Positions 2,675 to 48,218 of a stretch of 64,000 nucleotides of DNA are shown here, one piece after another. How positions within the stretch are numbered: position 1 is the stretch's first letter; every line of letters begins with the position of its first letter. The position numbers and the translations under genes are program-made. This stretch comes from an uncultured Bacteroidaceae bacterium (GTDB taxonomy: Bacteria; Bacteroidota; Bacteroidia; Bacteroidales; Bacteroidaceae). The stretch covers positions 3,452-67,451 of the forward strand of contig CAJOLW010000025.1 of assembly GCA_905235525.1 (NCBI GenBank), in the 5' to 3' direction. Below the pieces are notes generated by a model, which saw nothing but the letters and a program-made list of their open reading frames with translations, did not search any database and was not told where the DNA came from.

Positions 2675-4174
2675 ATGAAACAAATGAAAAGATTAGAAAG
2701 AATGAGATGGTTTTGGTTGGGTTTGATATGCCTTTTCTCCATGCTGGGACATGCAGAGAGTGATACCCTGCGCATGAGCCTTGGCGAGTGCATCCTTTTG
2801 GCACGGCGGCAAAGTGTGGATGCGGCAGTGGCATTGGGCGAATTGAAGTCGGCTTATTGGGAGTGGAGGAGCCATAAGGCGAACTTGCTGCCCGAGGTGT
2901 CGCTGTCGGCGAATGTACCCACATATAACAAGCGATACAGCACATACCAGAAAGAGGACGGCACACACTCCTACGTGCGGAACGACTACATGGAGTTGGA
3001 CGGTTCCATTTATGTGAGTCAAAAGATATGGCCTACAGGTGGCACATTGTCGGTGGAATCATCGCTGGATTGGATGCGGCAGATGAGTGGCGACACAAGC
3101 GGAGGCAGGAATCAGTTCATGAGCATGCCCATAGCACTCACGTTGAGCCAGCCACTCTTTGGCGTGAACACTGTGAAGTGGGACCGCCGCATCGAACCTA
3201 TCCGATACAAAGAGGCGAAGGCATCCTTCCTGACAGAGACGGAACAGGTGGCGATGCAAGCCATCAGCCTCTATTTCAATTTGCTGTTAGCAAACGAGAA
3301 CGTGAACATCGCCGAACAGAACCTACAGAATGCAGAAAAACTCTACGAAGTGGCACAGGCAAAGCGCGAGATGGGCAGCATCAGTCAAAACGATGTGCTA
3401 CAGATGCGACTGGGCATGCTGAATGCCCAATCAGCACTCACCTCTGCGGAGAGCCGCCGGAAGGCACAGATGTTTGAATTGAAGGCATTCCTCGATGTGG
3501 AAAGCGACATCGAGCCCATTGTACCCGAAGAGATTCCCGAGGTGACACTTCTCTACGAGGAGGTGCTGGAGAAAGCATTGACAAATAATGCCTTTGCGAA
3601 CAGAATGCGGAGGCGACAACTGGAAGCCGACTATTCGGTGGCATACGCGAAGGGAAACATGAGAAGCGTGACGCTCTATGCACAAGTGGGCTACACAGGC
3701 ACTGACCGCACCTTCGGCGATGCCTACCGAAACCTGTCGAGCAAGCAAGTGGTGCAGGTAGGTGTGTCGTTGCCGCTGCTCGACTGGGGCAAACGGCGCG
3801 GACAGGTGAAGGTGGCAGAGAGTAATCGTGAGATTGTGCGGAACCAAGTGCGGCAACAGTCACAGGAGTTCCGACAGAACCTCTTCGTGCTGACCGAGCA
3901 GTTCAACCACCAGCGGCAGCAACTTCGCATTGCCGAAGAGGCGGACACCATTGCCCAACGTCGCTACCACACCAACGTGGAGACCTTCAAGATTGGCAGC
4001 ATCTCCACCCTCGAACTGTCGGATGCACAAACTGCCAAGGACGAGGCACGGCAACGTCGCATTTCCGAACTGTTCAACTATTGGTACTACTACTACCAGT
4101 TGCGATCCATCACGCTGTGGGACTTTGAGAAAGGACAAAACATCAATGTGGATTTTGAAAAAATAGTAAAATGA
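2675..4174 (+). CDS. TolC family outer-membrane efflux protein
   Basis: 499 aa with a signal peptide (WFWLGLICLFSMLGHA) and two repeats of coiled-coil/beta-barrel TolC-like sequence. It is ATGA-coupled to the downstream adaptor gene. Confidence 0.85.
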   Translation: MKQMKRLERMRWFWLGLICLFSMLGHAESDTLRMSLGECILLARRQSVDAAVALGELKSAYWEWRSHKANLLPEVSLSANVPTYNKRYSTYQKEDGTHSYVRNDYMELDGSIYVSQKIWPTGGTLSVESSLDWMRQMSGDTSGGRNQFMSMPIALTLSQPLFGVNTVKWDRRIEPIRYKEAKASFLTETEQVAMQAISLYFNLLLANENVNIAEQNLQNAEKLYEVAQAKREMGSISQNDVLQMRLGMLNAQSALTSAESRRKAQMFELKAFLDVESDIEPIVPEEIPEVTLLYEEVLEKALTNNAFANRMRRRQLEADYSVAYAKGNMRSVTLYAQVGYTGTDRTFGDAYRNLSSKQVVQVGVSLPLLDWGKRRGQVKVAESNREIVRNQVRQQSQEFRQNLFVLTEQFNHQRQQLRIAEEADTIAQRRYHTNVETFKIGSISTLELSDAQTAKDEARQRRISELFNYWYYYYQLRSITLWDFEKGQNINVDFEKIVK

Positions 4175-5442
4175 AGACAGATAATCAAACCATGGACAGA
4201 GCCATTCCTGTCAGCGTACAGCGCAAAAGAAGAATGGTACGATATGGCAAGTATGCCGCCATCGTGGCTGTTGTGATGGGCGTGGCAGTATGGCTGGGCA
4301 CACTGATGATGAGTTCAGTAGATAAAAAGAGCCTCATCACCTCGCAGGTGGACAGGGGCATCATCGACGTGAGCATCATCGCCACAGGCAAGGTAGTGCC
4401 CGCCTTCGAAGAAGTCATCATCTCACCCATCAGCGCACAGATTCTGGAGGTCTATGCCCATAGCGGCGACACCGTAGATGTGGGCACTCCCCTCCTCCGC
4501 CTTGACCTTCAGTCGGCTCAGGCTGACTACTCCAAAGCCCTCGATGAGCAGGAAATTCGTCGGCAACAGATGGTGCAACTCACCACCAACACCGAAACCC
4601 AACTGAGTGACCGGCGCATGCAGTTGGAGGTGGAGGAGATGAAGATTGGGCAGTTGGAAGCACAACTGCGCAACGAGCAATATCTAGACAGTCTTGGCTC
4701 AGGCACGAAAGACCGTGTGCATCAGGCGGAAATCACCCTCCGCACCGCACAAATGCAACTGAAGCAACTGAGGCAGCAGTATGAAAACGAGGTGCGAGTG
4801 AGAAAAGCCGACCTGCGCATGAAGCAATTACAGGATGGCATTGCCGACAAGAGCCTTGACGAAACACGTCGCACCCTCGATGGTGCCAACATCCGTTCGC
4901 CCCGCAAAGCGACTCTCACCTACATCAGCAACGAAATCGGCAGCATCGTCGGGTCAGGCTCCAAAGTGGCAGTGGTGAGCGACCTCACCCATTTCAAAGT
5001 CGATTGCAGCATTGCCGACACCTATTCCGACCGCGTGATGGCAGGAGGACGTGTACTCGTCAAAATCGGGAGGGAACGCCTTTTCGGCACCATCAACACC
5101 GTCACGCCTCTCAGTCAGGACGGAGTCATCACCTTCACCGTCTTGATGGATAACCCCAGCCACCCCAAACTCCGTTCAGGCTTGAAGGCAGAAGTGTTTG
5201 TCATCACCAACATCAAGGAAGACGTGCTGCGCATCCGCAACGGTTCTTACTATACAGGTGCAGGCGATTATACATTATATATATATAAAGATGAACATAC
5301 CCTTGTGCCCCGCACCATCCACCTCGGCGACTGCAACTATGATTACGTGGAAGTCATCAGCGGATTGGAAGAGGGTGACAGCGTGGTGGTGAGCGACATG
5401 CAGAGGTATAAGGGAAAAGAGAAGATTCGAGTGAATGAGTGA
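4171..5442 (+). CDS. HlyD/MacA-type periplasmic adaptor (membrane fusion protein)
   Basis: 423 aa with an N-terminal TM anchor, a lipoyl-like segment (GKVVPAFEEVIISPISAQILEVYAHSGDTVDVGTPLLRLD), a long coiled coil and a beta-barrel C-terminus. Confidence 0.85.
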   Translation: MKTDNQTMDRAIPVSVQRKRRMVRYGKYAAIVAVVMGVAVWLGTLMMSSVDKKSLITSQVDRGIIDVSIIATGKVVPAFEEVIISPISAQILEVYAHSGDTVDVGTPLLRLDLQSAQADYSKALDEQEIRRQQMVQLTTNTETQLSDRRMQLEVEEMKIGQLEAQLRNEQYLDSLGSGTKDRVHQAEITLRTAQMQLKQLRQQYENEVRVRKADLRMKQLQDGIADKSLDETRRTLDGANIRSPRKATLTYISNEIGSIVGSGSKVAVVSDLTHFKVDCSIADTYSDRVMAGGRVLVKIGRERLFGTINTVTPLSQDGVITFTVLMDNPSHPKLRSGLKAEVFVITNIKEDVLRIRNGSYYTGAGDYTLYIYKDEHTLVPRTIHLGDCNYDYVEVISGLEEGDSVVVSDMQRYKGKEKIRVNE

Positions 5443-5531: not shown

Positions 5532-7013
5532 ATGATACTGATTGTTGACGATGACAGAGCCATTCGGGTGGCATTGACATTGATGCTGGAACGCAATGAT
5601 TACACGGTGATAAGTGCTGACGGACCTGATGCCGCCATGGAAGTGGTGCGCCACCAAGCCGAGTTGGAACTGGTGCTGATGGACATGAACTACACCCTCT
5701 CCACCGATGGCGAAGAAGGACTCACACTGCTCCGACAGGTGAAGGTGTTCCAACCCAACCTGCCCGTGATTCTCATGACCGCATGGGGCAGCATCGACTT
5801 GGCAGTGCAGGGAATGAGAAACGGAGCCTTCGATTTCATCACCAAACCATGGGATAATGGGGTGCTGCTGGAGCGAATCGAAACCGCCATACTGCTCAAC
5901 CGCCCTCACACAACGGAAGAACCTGCCGATAGACCCTTACACAACCTCTCAACCGACGTCGACGACATCGGTGAGGCGACATCGACGACATCGATTGACC
6001 GACATCGTCGACGTCGGTTTGGAGGTGCTGAAGACACCCTCATCATCGGGCAGTCGCAAAGTCTGCTGAGTGCCCTCGCCACTGTTGAACGAGTGGCACC
6101 TACCAATGCCCCAGTGCTCATCACGGGCGAGTCGGGCACAGGCAAGGAACTCATTGCACAAGCCATCCACGAACAGAGCCGACGGGCAGGAAAACCCTTT
6201 GTGAAAGTGAACCTCGGCGGTATATCAACAGCCCTGTTCGAGAGTGAGATGTTCGGACACAAGAAGGGTTCGTTCACCGATGCCAAGAGTGACCGCACGG
6301 GACGCTTTGAACTGGCAGAGGGCGGCACAATCTTTCTGGATGAAATCGGCGAGTTGGAACTGGCGAGCCAAGTGAAACTCCTGCGGGTGCTGCAAGACCA
6401 GACCTATGAGGTGCTGGGCGACAGCACCAGCCGCCACGCCAACGTGCGTGTGGTGTGTGCCACTAATGCCGACCTCCGCCAGATGGTCAAGGAGAAAACC
6501 TTCCGCGAAGACCTCTTCTATCGCATCAACCTCATCAACATCCATCTCTCACCCCTGCGCGAACGCACAGACGACATCCCTTTGCTCGTTCACCACTTCA
6601 TCCGCCAAACCTGCATGAGCAATAGTTTACCCATTGCCACCGCCTCTGCCGAAGCCATCCGATACCTGCAAACCCTCCCCTTCTATGGCAACATCCGCGA
6701 ATTGAAGAACTTAGTGGAGCGTACACTGCTCATGAGCGCAGACCCCTCCCTCACCTCCCCCAAAGGGGAGGGGTGGATACTTTCCGCAATGAATTTCCAA
6801 GAAGCTTACCAACAGAATCCCGTTGATGGAGGTGACCACTCTCCCCATTTAGGGGGAGCGGGGAGGGGGTCTGCTCTTACCCTTGAAGAAATCGAACGGG
6901 CTTCCATCGCAGCCTCCCTCGAAAAGCACCAAGGCAATCTCTCTCTGGTGGCAAAGGAACTCGGCATCAGCCGTGGGGCACTCTACCGAAAGATAGAAAA
7001 ACACGGGCTGTGA
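5532..7013 (+). CDS. sigma-54-dependent (NtrC-family) response regulator
   Basis: Start placed at MILIVDDD; the ORF-track start 5439 reads through heptad-repeat spacer. It has a receiver domain and an AAA+ sigma-54 interaction domain (GESGTGKELIAQAIH, GSFTDA variant of GAFTGA, IFLDEIGEL, VRVVCATN). It ends in a Fis-type HTH (LVAKELGISRGALYRKIEKHGL). Confidence 0.9.
   Translation: MILIVDDDRAIRVALTLMLERNDYTVISADGPDAAMEVVRHQAELELVLMDMNYTLSTDGEEGLTLLRQVKVFQPNLPVILMTAWGSIDLAVQGMRNGAFDFITKPWDNGVLLERIETAILLNRPHTTEEPADRPLHNLSTDVDDIGEATSTTSIDRHRRRRFGGAEDTLIIGQSQSLLSALATVERVAPTNAPVLITGESGTGKELIAQAIHEQSRRAGKPFVKVNLGGISTALFESEMFGHKKGSFTDAKSDRTGRFELAEGGTIFLDEIGELELASQVKLLRVLQDQTYEVLGDSTSRHANVRVVCATNADLRQMVKEKTFREDLFYRINLINIHLSPLRERTDDIPLLVHHFIRQTCMSNSLPIATASAEAIRYLQTLPFYGNIRELKNLVERTLLMSADPSLTSPKGEGWILSAMNFQEAYQQNPVDGGDHSPHLGGAGRGSALTLEEIERASIAASLEKHQGNLSLVAKELGISRGALYRKIEKHGL
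5951..6019. repeat. 69-bp palindromic element inside the REC/AAA+ linker coding region
   Basis: AACCGACGTCGACGACATCG (5951-5970) matches the reverse complement of CGACATCGTCGACGTCGGTT (6000-6019) at 18/20. It encodes TDVDDIGEATSTTSIDRHRRRRF. Confidence 0.6.
6739..6873. repeat. 135-bp G/C-hairpin element with terminal inverted repeats, in frame inside the regulator gene
   Basis: Left end is CAGACCCCTCCCTCACCTCCCCCAAAGGGGAGG and right end is CTCCCCATTTAGGGGGAGCGGGGAGGGGGTCTG. The right arm is nearly identical to 30378-30408. Confidence 0.75.
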
Positions 7014-22551: not shown

Positions 22552-25479
22552 ATGGAATACAATTTTAGAGAGATTGAGCAGAAATGGCAACAGCGATGGG
22601 TGGAAGAGAAGACCTATCAGGTTGCTGAGGACAAGAGCAAACCGAAGTTTTATGTGTTGAACATGTTCCCCTACCCCAGTGGGGCGGGTCTGCATGTGGG
22701 ACACCCATTAGGATATATTGCGAGTGACATCTATGCGCGTTTCAAGCGTCTGCAGGGATATAACGTGCTGAACCCGATGGGGTATGATGCGTATGGTCTG
22801 CCTGCTGAACAGTATGCGATTCAGACGGGTCAGCACCCTGAGAAGACGACCTTCCAGAACATTGACCGCTATCGTGAGCAACTGGACAAGATTGGCTTCT
22901 GCTTTGACTGGGACAGAGAGGTGAGAACTTGTGCACCTGGCTACTACAAGTGGACGCAATGGGCGTTCCAGAAGATGTTCAACTCTTTTTTCTGTCTGAA
23001 AGAGCAGAAGGCAATGCCGATTGAGAAACTCATCCAGCGTTTCGAAACCAAGGGAACGCTGAGCGACGATGGCGGCACGGTGCAGGTGGCTTGTACGGAA
23101 GAACTGCACTTCACTGCTGAGGAGTGGAACTCGTGGGACGAGAAGAAGAAGAGTGACGTGCTGATGAACTACAGGATTGCCTTCATGGGCGAGACGATGG
23201 TGAACTGGTGTGCTGGACTGGGTACCGTGCTGGCGAATGACGAGGTGGTTGACGGTGTGAGTGTGCGTGGCGGTTTCCCTGTGGAGCAGAAGAAGATGAG
23301 GCAGTGGTGCTTGAGAGTGAGTGCCTACGCACAGCGACTTTTGGACGGACTGGACACGATAGAGTGGAGCGACAGCATCAAGGAGACGCAGAAGAACTGG
23401 ATTGGCCGAAGTGAAGGTACGGAAGTGGAATTCAAGATTGCCAGCCCCCTCCCAACCTCCCCCAAGGGGGAGGAGAACCATCCGGATGGCAATCACTCTC
23501 CTTTGGGGGAAACGGAAGGGGCCTCCTTCACCATCTTCACCACCCGTGCCGACACGATGTTTGGTGTCACCTTCATGGTGCTGGCTCCTGAGAGTGAACT
23601 GGTGGAGAAAGTGACGACGGCTGAACAGAAGGCTGCCGTGGAGGAATATATCAAGTATGTGAAGGGCCGCACGGAGCGTGAGCGCATGATCGACCACAAG
23701 GTAACGGGTGTGTTCTCGGGTTCTTACGCCATCAATCCTTTCACTGGCGAGAAAAATCCTATCTGGATTTCTGAGTATGTATTGGCAGGTTACGGTACGG
23801 GTGCCATCATGGCTGTGCCTGCGCATGACAGCCGCGACTACGCTTTTGCCAAGCATTTCGGCTTGCCGATTATTCCGCTGATTGAAGGGGCTGACGTGAG
23901 CGAGGAGAGTTATGATGCCAAGGAGGGTATCGTGACGAACTCACCACGGAAGGATGTGAAGCCATACATCGACTTCAGCCTCAACGGACTGACCGTGAAG
24001 GAGGCGATTGCTGCCACGAAGAAGTATGTGACGGAGACTGGTATTGGTCGTGTGAAGGTGAACTACCGTCTGCGTGATGCCATCTTCTCCCGTCAGCGTT
24101 ATTGGGGCGAGCCCTTCCCTGTCTATTACAAGAACGGCATCCCGACGATGATTCCAGAGGAGTGCTTGCCTATCGAACTGCCGGAGGTGGATAAGTTCCT
24201 GCCTACGGAGACGGGTGAACCGCCTCTGGGCAATGCTACCGTATGGGCTTGGGATGAGGTGAACAGGAAGATTGTGGAAAACACGAAGATTGACAACAAG
24301 ACGGTGTTCCCTATTGAACTCTACACCATGCCTGGCTTTGCAGGCAGTTCGGCTTACTATCTGCGCTATATGGATCCACATAACGACAAGGCACTGGTGA
24401 GCAAGGAGGCTGACGAATATTGGCAGAATGTGGACTTGTATGTGGGTGGTAGCGAACACGCTACGGGTCACTTGATTTACAGCCGCTTCTGGAACAAGTT
24501 CCTCTTCGACCTTGGCGTATCCTGCAAGGAAGAACCTTTCCAGAAATTGATTAACCAAGGTATGATTCAGGGCAGGAGCAACTTCGTGTATCGCATCAAG
24601 GACACGAACACGTTTGTCTCCTTCGACAAGAAAGATGGCTATGACGTGACACCTATCCATGTGGATGTGAACATCGTGAGTGCCGATGTGCTGGATGTGG
24701 AGGCCTTCAAGGCTTGGCGTCCTGAGTACAACACCGCCGAGTTCATCTTGAACGACGAGGGCAAGTACATCTGCGGATGGGCTGTGGAGAAGATGTCGAA
24801 GAGTATGTTCAACGTGGTGAACCCTGATATGATTGTGGAGAAGTTTGGTGCTGACACGCTGCGTCTCTACGAGATGTTCCTCGGTCCTGTGGAGCAGAGT
24901 AAACCTTGGGATACCAATGGCATTGACGGTTGCCACAGATTCCTGAAGAAATTGTGGAAGTTCATGACCACAGAGGAAGGTGCCATCAACGCTACCGACG
25001 GTGCTGCCTCGAAGGAGGAACTCAAGGCACTGCACACTCTCATCAAGAAAGAGACAGCCGACATCGAAGCGTTCTCATACAACACAACCATTGCTGCCTT
25101 CATGGTGTGCCTCAACGAACTGACAAAGTTGAAGAGCGAGAGCCGTGAGGTGAAGGAGACGCTGGCCATCCTGCTGGCACCGTTCTGTCCTCATGTGGCT
25201 GAAGAGTTCTGGCACCTGCTGGGACATGACACCACGGTGTGCGACGCTCCATGGCCATCCTTCAACGAAGACTACCTGAAGGAAGACTCGGTGAAGATGA
25301 TGGTGGCGTTCAATGGTAAGGCACGCTTCCCACTGGAGTTCCCCGCTGACGTGACTAAGGAGGAAGCGGAGAAGGCTGCGCTTGAAAGCCCACAATCAGC
25401 CAAGTGGATGGAAGGATTCACGGTGGCAAAGGTGATTGTGGTGCCGGGCAAGATGATTAATGTGGTATTAAAAAAGTGA
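22552..25479 (+). CDS. leuS: leucine--tRNA ligase
   Basis: 975 aa with HIGH-type motif [19 protein letters not shown] motif VEKMSKSMF and editing-domain sequence [21 protein letters not shown]. Confidence 0.97.
23443..23524. repeat. G/C-hairpin element with inverted arms, in frame inside leuS
   Basis: AGCCCCCTCCCAACCTCCCCCAAGGGGGAGGAG ... CTCTCCTTTGGGGGAAACGGAAGGGGCCT. It encodes [27 protein letters not shown] between the conserved GTEVEF and [10 protein letters not shown] blocks. Confidence 0.7.
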
Positions 25480-26726
25480 AAAGGTCTTACATTTTTCATG
25501 AATTAAAGGATTATGCCCTCATTGCTGTGGGTGTAATCCTTTATGCGATTGGTGTGACAGTATTCATGCTACCCTACAGTCTGACTACGGGTGGTGTGGC
25601 TGGTGTGGCATCAATTATTTACTATGTCACAGGTGTTGAGGTGCAAGTCACTTACATTATTGTCAACATCATCCTACTGATTATTGCCGTGAAGGTGTTG
25701 GGCATCCGTTTCTGCATCAAAACGATTTATGCCGTTGCTGTCATGACTTTCGTTTTGTGGCTTTTGCAACGACTCATTGAAGTGCCTGATCCTGCCAATC
25801 CCCAAATAATGGTGTTGCCAAAACTGATTGGTGACGAGTCTTTTATGGCATGTGTGTTGGGTGCTATTTTTGAAGGTGTTGGATTGTATATTTGTTTTGA
25901 ACACAATGGTTCCACAGGCGGTACAGACATCATCGCCCTCATCGTACAGAAATTTCGTACCATGTCACTTGGTTCCATCCTCATGGCATGCGACATCATC
26001 ATCATCTCTTCCTGTTATTTCGTCTTCCATGATTGGTTCCGTGTCATTTATGGTTTTGTCTTTCTTTTCATTAGTTCGATGACACTCGACTATTGTATCC
26101 GTCGGCGTCATCAATCCGTACAGTTCATGATTTTCTCACGTAATCCTAATGCCATTGCCGATGCCATTGTCAGCACTGGTCATGGAGTGACGGTGTTGGA
26201 TGGTGAAGGCTGGTACACTCATACTGACCGGAAAGTGGTGGTGAGTATCATTCGTCAACGAGAGCAGGTTCTTATGCAACGCATGATCCAGCAAATTGAC
26301 CCTTATGCTTTTGTATCGATGACAGATGCCAGTGGTGTGTGGGGTGAAGGATTTGACGCCATCAAGGTGAAAGACCGTAAACCACGGTCGGAAAGAAACA
26401 AGAAGAATGCTGTGCTGGTGTGTGTGACCAACAACACCACTAAGATAGATACTGCCCAACAGGTGTTGGGTGACTACTACGATGTGCGCTCTCTGCTACA
26501 AGTGGGTTGTGACACCCGCAAGGAGTTCTATTCAGTGGTGCTGGGACAAGAACCTCGCAAACGAGTTTCTTTCATCAAGAAATTCTTTGGATTCGATGCC
26601 TTCTACCTCGCCAAAGATGGTACTGTCACTTTGGTGCAGGGAAATTATGGTCAGAATGAGTATGACATCACGGAGTACAAGAATCTGGAAGAAATGAAAC
26701 AATATCTGGAGACAAAAAAAGCCTGA
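25476..26726 (+). CDS. YitT family membrane protein (DUF2179) with extra C-terminal domain
   Basis: 416 aa. YitT-type TM core ([28 protein letters not shown]), DUF2179-like [40 protein letters not shown], then about 110 additional residues. Confidence 0.85.
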
Positions 26727-30264: not shown

Positions 30265-32042
<1,778 letters not shown>

Positions 32043-48184: not shown

Positions 48185-48218
48185 AGCCCCCTCCGACTCC
48201 CCTGTTTAGGGGAGTGAG
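48185..48218. repeat. single arm of the G/C-hairpin element family
   Basis: AGCCCCCTCCGACTCCCCTGTTTAGGGGAGTGAGG, immediately after the thioesterase stop. Confidence 0.6.

Follow-up and report, generated by a model that had tools for sequence, protein, structure and literature searches.

In-frame palindromic repeats in essential genes have mostly been regarded as peculiar to Rickettsia and put down to the weak selection that acts in small intracellular populations. We describe here a palindromic element that lies in frame inside leuS, the gene for leucyl-tRNA synthetase, in a stretch of 64,000 nucleotides from an uncultured Bacteroidaceae bacterium (contig CAJOLW010000025.1; the whole stretch is called the window below). 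A previous sequence-only reading of this DNA had proposed that a hairpin repeat colonised the gene in the manner of the Rickettsia palindromic elements (RPEs). Our analysis makes it likely that the insert is a Prevotellaceae palindromic repeat, similar to RPEs and to repetitive extragenic palindromes (REPs), and that it is translated as a tolerated passenger loop of the enzyme.

According to PMC10969869, which summarises Ogata et al. 2000, RPEs are palindromic repeats found in frame in unrelated housekeeping genes, with a preferred reading frame. The family of the leuS element shows the same combination, and resembles RPEs further in forming palindromes of ~100-150 nt, in having no known transposase and roughly half of its copies in open reading frames (ORFs), and probably in being translated as extra surface peptides. 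It differs in being C/G-rich (Rickettsia genomes are AT-rich), in having as its unit a 33-nt module that is also inserted solo, as 11 codons, in reaching up to three copies in one gene, leuS, and in residing in free-living gut and rumen Bacteroidota with large populations, in contrast to reduced intracellular genomes. Composition (C/G runs) and host phylum, not a comparison of consensus sequences, set the family apart, and we do not file it as a member of the RPEs.

REPs lie in a minority of cases inside genes, including tRNA synthetase and DNA repair genes of Proteobacteria, and their CGTC class has no dedicated transposase (PMC3733652). Like REPs and REPINs (PMC3733652, PMC3116915), a minority of which are also inside ORFs, the leuS family consists of imperfect palindromes of 20-40 nt in high copy number, placed solo or as inverted doublets that make a longer hairpin, and frequently situated right after a stop codon. 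However, its stems are C/G runs, unlike the REP stems described, and no module-flanked RAYT was found in the loci searched. GTAG was not seen in the modules, and CGTC occurs only in the B arms of the leuS type (CCGTCTCCCCC), not in A arms or other subfamilies. Moreover, REPs are mainly extragenic, whereas 18 of the 36 sites with the exact leuS-type 33-mer are deep in ORFs and four of the seven modules in the window are in genes. Among repeats in general about 10% are inside genes (PMC11602168), against about half of the sampled sites for this one leuS-type subfamily.

MITEs (miniature transposable elements with inverted repeats) that make in-frame fusions, such as QMITE1 of Coxiella, intragenic ERIC and those of Anabaena (PMC10969869, PMC5896051), are likewise short and non-autonomous, with terminal inverted repeats and open frames that extend host ORFs. 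The leuS family has inverted repeats at its ends but no target-site duplication, there being no direct repeats at any junction; native residues are lost at the insertion site, solo 33-nt units fall below MITE size, and no parent insertion sequence with matching ends was found in the loci examined. The byps of Magnusiomyces mitochondria are GC-rich palindromic mobile inserts in protein-coding genes which are skipped by the ribosome, so that the frame need not be kept. The leuS family shares with them the GC-rich palindromic inserts inside coding genes, but all of its in-gene copies examined keep the frame and are free of stops, which points to translation. In the literature we found no description of such elements for Bacteroidota, our searches with module and peptide strings having matched unrelated text only. 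To this extent the earlier remark that no description was known for this phylum holds; the behaviour is not unique to the phylum, however, given the REPs in proteobacterial ORFs and the modules in PolA, ThiC and HrpB reported below.

The leuS gene and its insert

The host gene (22552-25479; all window features given here are on the forward strand) is intact and encodes a protein of 975 aa, called from the ORF and matched by phmmer to the Thermus thermophilus enzyme 1h3n, its best relative of solved structure, with E = 9e-175; the Pfam domains tRNA-synt_1, tRNA-synt_1_2 and Anticodon_1 are found on LeuS homologues. The exact window LeuS is present in both NCBI and ENA assemblies, and its 90%-identity cluster spans 963 to 1000 aa. 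The element occupies 81 nt, or 27 codons (23443-23523, S298-A324), in place of a native DSDE loop, and separates two conserved LeuS blocks by a 27-residue peptide rich in Pro, Ser, Gly and Glu. Its sequence, inverted arms and peptide are as first described. The start given earlier is also right, but the 82-bp segment 23443-23524 proposed then is one base too long, base 23524 being part of the next Ser codon.

Between the two conserved blocks there are ~10 residues in the T. thermophilus enzyme, 8 in empty relatives and 31 in the window LeuS. With respect to empty alleles the net gain is 23 codons (975 vs 952 aa), four native residues (DSDE) being gone, and in the protein alignment the close relatives read KIA-D-SDE-SFTIF at this position. 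Three insertion sites are known in leuS, and they were placed structurally by sequence alignment to 1h3n. The site filled in the window, site 2, falls opposite a gap directly before the TTRPDT editing motif, at what in published LeuRS structures is the first hairpin of the CP1 editing domain, at its N-terminal edge. Site 1 is inside a Bacteroidota-specific stretch of ~60 residues that does not align to 1h3n, and site 3 is in a part of the anticodon-binding domain where conservation is poor. An AlphaFold2 model of LeuS built from a shallow alignment of 14 sequences had a mean pLDDT of 31.7 and was unusable.

Polymorphism among LeuS relatives

LeuS proteins that are 86-95% identical overall to that of the window range in length from 947 to 1051 aa, and in the 14-sequence alignment the relatives are 94-97% identical over aligned columns. 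The window site is empty (KIA-D-SDE-SFT) in P0001, P0002, P0006, P0044, P0085 and P0097, carries a 40-residue version in P0016, P0029, P0031 and P0034 and a 27-residue version in P0020, P0099 and P0244, and retains an 11-residue remnant in P0028/L126. The alignment suggested at the outset thus confirms a lineage-specific insertion, and the empty alleles among close relatives contradict the possibility that all orthologues share a loop of similar length unrelated to the repeat. In relatives the element also fills two further sites, with no change of orientation or frame, namely site 1 after FFSK at about residue 148 and site 3 after KFMT at about residue 806. Most combinations of presence and absence at the three sites occur among alleles that are 94-99% identical; L187 (site 3 filled) and L188 (empty) are nearly isogenic, with 98/100 identical positions in each flank.

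Anatomy of the module

The repeating unit is a module of ~33 nt (11 codons) made of RGCCCCCTCC, a few bases and then CCTCCCCC-loop-GGGGGAGG. It is found solo or in inverted doublets with arms of ~33 nt, and direct translation shows that its six reading frames are all free of stops. Solo modules are often placed directly after stop codons, as at window position 48185, at 4529, 9220, 9260 and 16544 of locus L001 and at 12866 of L003.

In the leuS insert a 33-nt hairpin module is followed by a 21-nt palindromic centre and a degraded inverted module. Module A (23443-23475, AGCCCCCTCCCAACCTCCCCCAAGGGGGAGGAG; 33 nt, 11 codons) has an outer C-run and then a perfect hairpin, CCTCCCCC-AA-GGGGGAGG, and is identical in 33/33 positions to the modules at leuS sites 1 and 2 of L001. 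The central segment (23476-23496, AACCATCCGGATGGCAATCAC) contains the palindrome CCATCCGGATGG and is taken in relatives by a 60-nt spacer; several other sites also have the motif CCATSCGG after their module A. Module B (23497-23523, TCTCCTTTGGGGGAAACGGAAGGGGCC), inverted and degraded in comparison with L001 and L125, encodes SPLGETEGA, and its arm differs from the family consensus by four substitutions, 4/4 at third codon positions and 4/4 synonymous. Complementarity between the two inverted arms, 23458-23472 and 23496-23510, is 87%, and the local hairpin CCTCCCCC/GGGGGAGG pairs without a mismatch. The full-length 120-nt leuS doublet of L001 folds into one long hairpin (-37.5 kcal/mol, z = -6.6); by itself the window copy has a fold no stronger than those of shuffled sequences (z = -1.5), its hairpin having been weakened by the substitutions in the B arm. 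That all four are synonymous hints at a present constraint on the peptide and not on the DNA hairpin.

The resemblance between copies is hardly compositional. With up to two mismatches allowed, the hairpin core CYTCCCCCWWRGGGGAG is matched 5 times in the window, each time at the leuS or the 6754 site, where shuffles would lead one to expect 0.05, a 100-fold excess. The copies at 6739 and 30265 are 94% identical over 35 nt (modules 6839-6872 and 30375-30408) with E = 5e-10, and the leuS and 6739 copies are 95% identical over 19 nt with E = 0.005. Similarity at the level of chance for G/C-rich sequence, which had been named as a way in which the proposal could fail, is contradicted by these values. 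A search of the window against Rfam gave nothing at the gathering threshold.

A second repeat of ~79 nt (CTTGCCGTCCTCAGAAAGGGCAC...CACCGCTCGCT) was always found nested in a module, between the outer C-run and the hairpin (L001 12502-12580 and 13202-13280, L134 8071-8149, L124 2124-2202, L126 2772-2850). It is in frame in leuS site 3, where it adds 25 residues, and in leuS site 1 of P0251. We had taken the 79-nt sequence in site 3 of L001 for unique filler, a view rejected once it was seen to be itself a repeat; it may be either a repeat that targets modules or a composite module spread by conversion.

Spread of the module among genes

The exact leuS-type 32-mer was found in 60 metagenome stretches, on rumen-type contigs, which deduplication reduces to 36 or more distinct sites. 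Half of these sites are located deep in long ORFs. The hosts that Pfam confirms, with the module in frame, are AlaRS, PurL, an Lpd-like oxidoreductase, an ODP/metallo-beta-lactamase protein, TruA, an M20 peptidase, PP2C, GH3, a DnaG-type (primase) zinc ribbon, DUF3987 and HIRAN proteins. PyrG and GltB were identified as hosts by reading their sequence only; the same applies to an outer-membrane receptor-like protein with two sites, which has no Pfam hit in its first 383 residues. The doublets of leuS site 2, leuS site 3 and alaS have the 60-nt spacer in common, and GltB contains two modules in opposite orientation with native sequence between them. Together with the polymorphism and the two further leuS sites, the identical in-frame 33-mers in unrelated genes uphold the original proposal of a hairpin repeat that colonises an essential gene in frame, as RPEs do.

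No exact module was found in a scan of IMG/VR (0 matches), which gives no sign of carriage by phages. A profile of the insert peptides gave 2 weak hits among 1.84 billion cluster representatives, a search of low power with 40 positions and with 50%-cluster representatives that often lack the insert, and a word-index protein search with the 40-aa insert peptide returned no candidates.

Two observations on these hosts may be added. In L131 and L142 (leuS 5' part, alaS 3' part) and in L173 (alaS 5' part, leuS site-3 3' part) the frame switches from one gene to the other exactly at the shared 120-nt element, and these loci are most likely assembly chimeras caused by the repeat. The module A orthologues of gltB differ by a flipped hairpin loop, CCTTCCCC-AA-GGGGGAGG in L005 (7567-7599) and CCTCCCCC-TT-GGGGGAGG in L141 (~3220-3252), which is what an inversion of the palindrome centre would be expected to produce.

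A rule for the reading frame

Among the modules deep in ORFs, 11/11 in the A orientation read the same 11-residue peptide, while those in the B orientation (n = 7) read LLPLGGG(R/W)EGA at four sites and another 10-residue peptide at three. All 18/18 are therefore in the three frames without Pro-Pro-Pro; the three unused frames each contain it and were seen only at ORF edges or in short, doubtful ORFs. Assuming equiprobable frames, our arithmetic gives P ~3e-7 for this bias. Polyproline stalls ribosomes, with dependence on EF-P, and counter-selection of polyproline may be the cause of the bias. The leuS and regulator copies do share orientation and frame, as had been pointed out, but this does not extend to the whole family, which uses three of six frames. 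Because the frame is kept, the length is a multiple of three and stops are absent, the inserts are probably translated rather than bypassed.

Junctions and divergence

The 120-nt element of site 2 shows 0-2 differences between alleles that have diverged by 6-11% in their 650 nt of flanks. Between L125 and L001 there is 1 difference in 120 in the element and ~10% in the flanks (binomial P ~5e-5, by our estimate), and the elements of the receptor-like protein are likewise less diverged than their flanks. The element is thus younger than its host gene, or homogenised relative to it. At each site the junctions are identical in every filled allele. These facts fit a single origin per site followed by recombinational spread, and recurrent site-specific replacement, equally well.

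Origin and fate of the leuS insert

We propose that the leuS copy is an 81-nt doublet that would occupy a variable loop of surface type where the CP1 editing domain begins. It could be translated with LeuS, given its multiple-of-three length and six stop-free frames, and would be transcribed and translated along with it as a 27-residue loop rich in Pro, Ser, Gly and Glu. It would represent a tolerated passenger, selfish or near-neutral DNA, rather than a functional domain of LeuS. Selection would filter the in-gene copies that survive, favouring positions in loops and linkers, lengths that are multiples of three and frames free of polyproline. Afterwards, filled alleles would have passed between related lineages, with homologous recombination as the most likely route.

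Several observations weigh against this proposal. The frame rule is not absolute, module peptides of the DPPPTPP type being present in some regulator orthologues, and the fraction of copies in coding sequence is derived from fragmentary contigs with ORF heuristics rather than from annotated complete genomes. No module-flanked gene was found in the 1.4 Mb of fetched loci by tblastn, using RayT and IS200 probes of approximate sequence, and then by Pfam. No clean pair of empty and filled alleles that differ by a simple insertion was found, since every filled site lacks native residues: DSDE(S), 4-5 aa or 15 nt, at leuS site 2, 13 aa (39 nt) at leuS site 3, and NADPFHVNADV (11 aa) and TE (2 aa) at the two sites of the receptor-like protein. 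Inspection of sites 2 and 3 of leuS, of both sites in the receptor-like protein and of the groES-groEL spacer revealed neither a target-site duplication nor a clean empty site, and for GltB there was no empty allele for comparison. The missing duplication and the lost residues together fit no standard transposition scheme. Finally, the strong nucleotide conservation of the element could mean a selected function.

As regards the route of arrival, though not the identity of the element, there is about an even chance that the element entered leuS once per site in an ancestor and that the window lineage received the filled segment from a related lineage by homologous recombination. The identical junctions, with the same native residues lost in all filled alleles, would follow from such an import, and so would an element far less diverged than its flanks and three sites that occur in most combinations among alleles 94-99% identical; the window leuS, moreover, is about equidistant (87-90% nt) from filled and empty lineages. 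However, the right flank of L187 is of backbone type within 24 nt of the element, so that any imported tract would have to end almost exactly at the element boundary, and sliding identity shows no clear L001-like block around the window site 2 beyond 92-94%.

Considerably less probable is that the insert has been domesticated, either as a hairpin resembling a Shine-Dalgarno (SD)/anti-SD pair that would slow ribosomes at domain boundaries or as a loop that would modulate the movement of the editing domain. An element nearly invariant across lineages with flanks 6-11% different, and the purely synonymous changes in the window B arm, agree with this idea. So do the insertion points, which are found at borders of domains (the start of CP1, the linker that joins the AAA+ and helix-turn-helix (HTH) domains of the regulator, and the linkers of PolA, ThiC and the hydantoinase) and the persistence of modules at the same two linker positions of the regulator down to 60% identity. 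Yet insertions are simply better tolerated at the borders of domains and in loops, each site is empty in many close relatives that thrive nonetheless, and copies decay, by internal deletion (the 11-aa remnant of P0028/L126) and by loss of the hairpin (as in the window fold).

It is very improbable that the insert is skipped by the ribosome, by programmed bypassing as in T4 gene 60 or byps, or removed from the mRNA or the protein. A stable GC-rich palindrome in a coding region does recall the byps, which Lang et al. in 2014 reportedly described as just such palindromes; but every in-gene copy examined is in the host frame, divisible by three and stop-free, with strongly non-random frames, the features of an intein or intron cannot fit in 81 nt, and there is no Rfam match. 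That the insert is no mobile repeat at all, but a local low-complexity expansion or an assembly artefact resembling other sites by composition, can be practically dismissed, for although the sequence is C/G-rich and of low complexity and family repeats do cause chimeric contigs (the leuS-alaS joins), exact 32-33-mers are present at 36 or more unrelated sites, three doublets share a 60-nt spacer, the same allele is found in independent NCBI and ENA assemblies, and 5 matches stand against 0.05 expected from shuffles.

Modules in other phyla and significance

A scan of one genome per species with a degenerate pattern, which itself selects for the module motif, gave, among the matches listed, examples from many phyla, with many inverted pairs 80-110 nt apart. 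The C-rich hairpin module type is widespread. The architecture CCCCCTCC-spacer-CCTCCCCC-loop-GGGGGAGG was seen, among the matches listed, in Alpha-, Beta- and Deltaproteobacteria, Nitrospirota, Chloroflexota, Deinococcus, a cyanobacterium and other Bacteroidota, for example at L016 5038-5149 and 7566-7675, in L100, at L031 5100-8000, L089 4657-7920 and L123 3-1808 (within the loci L004-L123). Of ten long ORFs tested in non-Bacteroidota loci, eight proved to be real genes that carry the module in frame, in most cases at a position between domains; the hosts are PolA (twice), a hydantoinase, a UvrA-like protein, aminopeptidase N, HrpB, a type II secretion ATPase and ThiC. Either shared ancestry with the Prevotellaceae family or convergence could account for these modules.

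We tentatively consider, as an unlikely extension, that the C-rich hairpin modules constitute a distinct and widespread class of bacterial repeats adapted to life in coding genes, with an 11-codon unit whose peptides are compatible with loops. They would overwrite short linkers and surface loops by a process akin to repair or conversion, without target duplication, and would be homogenised by conversion or horizontal exchange. If true, such modules would generally drive the evolution of loops in the essential proteins of bacteria that are abundant and free-living.

New in the present case are the 11-codon module, the unusually high in-gene share in abundant free-living Bacteroidota, the up to three sites in one essential gene, the simple frame rule and the replacement-type junctions. 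A comparable frequency of in-frame repeats in Prevotellaceae, which are among the most abundant gut and rumen bacteria, weakens the explanation by weak selection, and makes of this family an accessible, cultivable system for asking how such elements move and what they cost. The absence of frames with Pro-Pro-Pro offers a testable link between mobile DNA and translation. In practice, the repeats give strain-level length variants of core marker proteins, and they cause chimeric metagenome contigs and spurious ORFs, a hazard for the annotation of metagenome-assembled genomes and for strain calling.

Other modules in the window

Besides the two modules of leuS, the window contains two in a sigma-54 regulator, two in the groES-groEL spacer and one solo. 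The sequence-only reading had assigned segments 6739-6873 and 30265-30408 to the same family as single copies; the family assignment was correct, but each consists of two inverted solo modules around native sequence, and for 6739-6873 the orthologue alignment rejects a single inserted unit.

The sigma-54-dependent response regulator (5532-7013, 493 aa) has the Pfam domains Response_reg, Sigma54_activat, AAA_lid_14 (343-408) and HTH_8 (450-490), P0123 being a 100%-identical protein, and both of its solo modules are found in the linker that joins the AAA+ lid to the Fis-type HTH. They belong to a second subfamily, module A (6740-6773, AGACCCCTCCCTCACCTCCCCCAAAGGGGAGGGG) being in frame as DPSLTSPKGEG and the inverted module B (6839-6872, CTCTCCCCATTTAGGGGGAGCGGGGAGGGGGTCT) in frame as 12 residues. 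The intervening ILSAMNFQEAYQQNPVDGG is native linker, its LTAxDFQ motif being kept even in module-free orthologues. Native sequence between the paired modules, here and in gltB, identifies solo modules as units in their own right. Orthologues have A-like peptides at the first position, though a few lack them; down to 60% identity, A-like and B-like peptides of different subfamilies are found at the same two linker positions. In some orthologues (P0136, P0158, P0240, P0241; e.g. YGEGQGRGSLYGEGQGRGS, PHPQPLSKEPHPQPLSKGRGEW) the module peptides are duplicated in tandem, which indicates that modules also expand locally.

In the groES-groEL spacer module A (30266-30300) directly follows the groES stop codon and the inverted module B (30375-30408) ends 2 nt before the groEL ATG (30411); the same spacer has no modules in L001 and L003. 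The inverted module sets a GGAGG ~8 nt upstream of the groEL ATG (30396-30413, GGGGAGGGGGTCTTTATG). In effect, the module pairs an arm resembling an SD sequence with one resembling an anti-SD, in an organism that for the most part makes no use of SD sequences. The solo module AGCCCCCTCCGACTCCCCTGTTTAGGGGAG (48185-48214) is intergenic, with a near-identical solo module at L001 16544-16573.

Downstream of leuS in the window there is an ORF of 416 aa (25476-26726) in which no module was detected. It is the putative counterpart of the YitT-family gene downstream of leuS in L001, which encodes 437 aa and has an in-frame module near its N-terminus (L001 13364-13394, reverse strand).

With regard to candidate mobilising enzymes, paired doublets in L051 were considered as transposase borders and rejected, as they merely flank serA- and serC-like genes. 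A RayT homologue lies ~2 kb from a module in a Xanthobacteraceae contig. In L186 (2950-3640) a 157-aa Y1_Tnp (IS200-like) gene at 3072-3545 on the reverse strand, the sole Y1 gene seen on a module-bearing contig of Prevotellaceae type, is flanked by inverted repeats of ~90 nt (CCGCTCAGTAACCGAGGGTACGAGCG...GCACCCTGGAGGGGTGCCCC) that are unrelated to the module, in a "TIRtron"-like arrangement.

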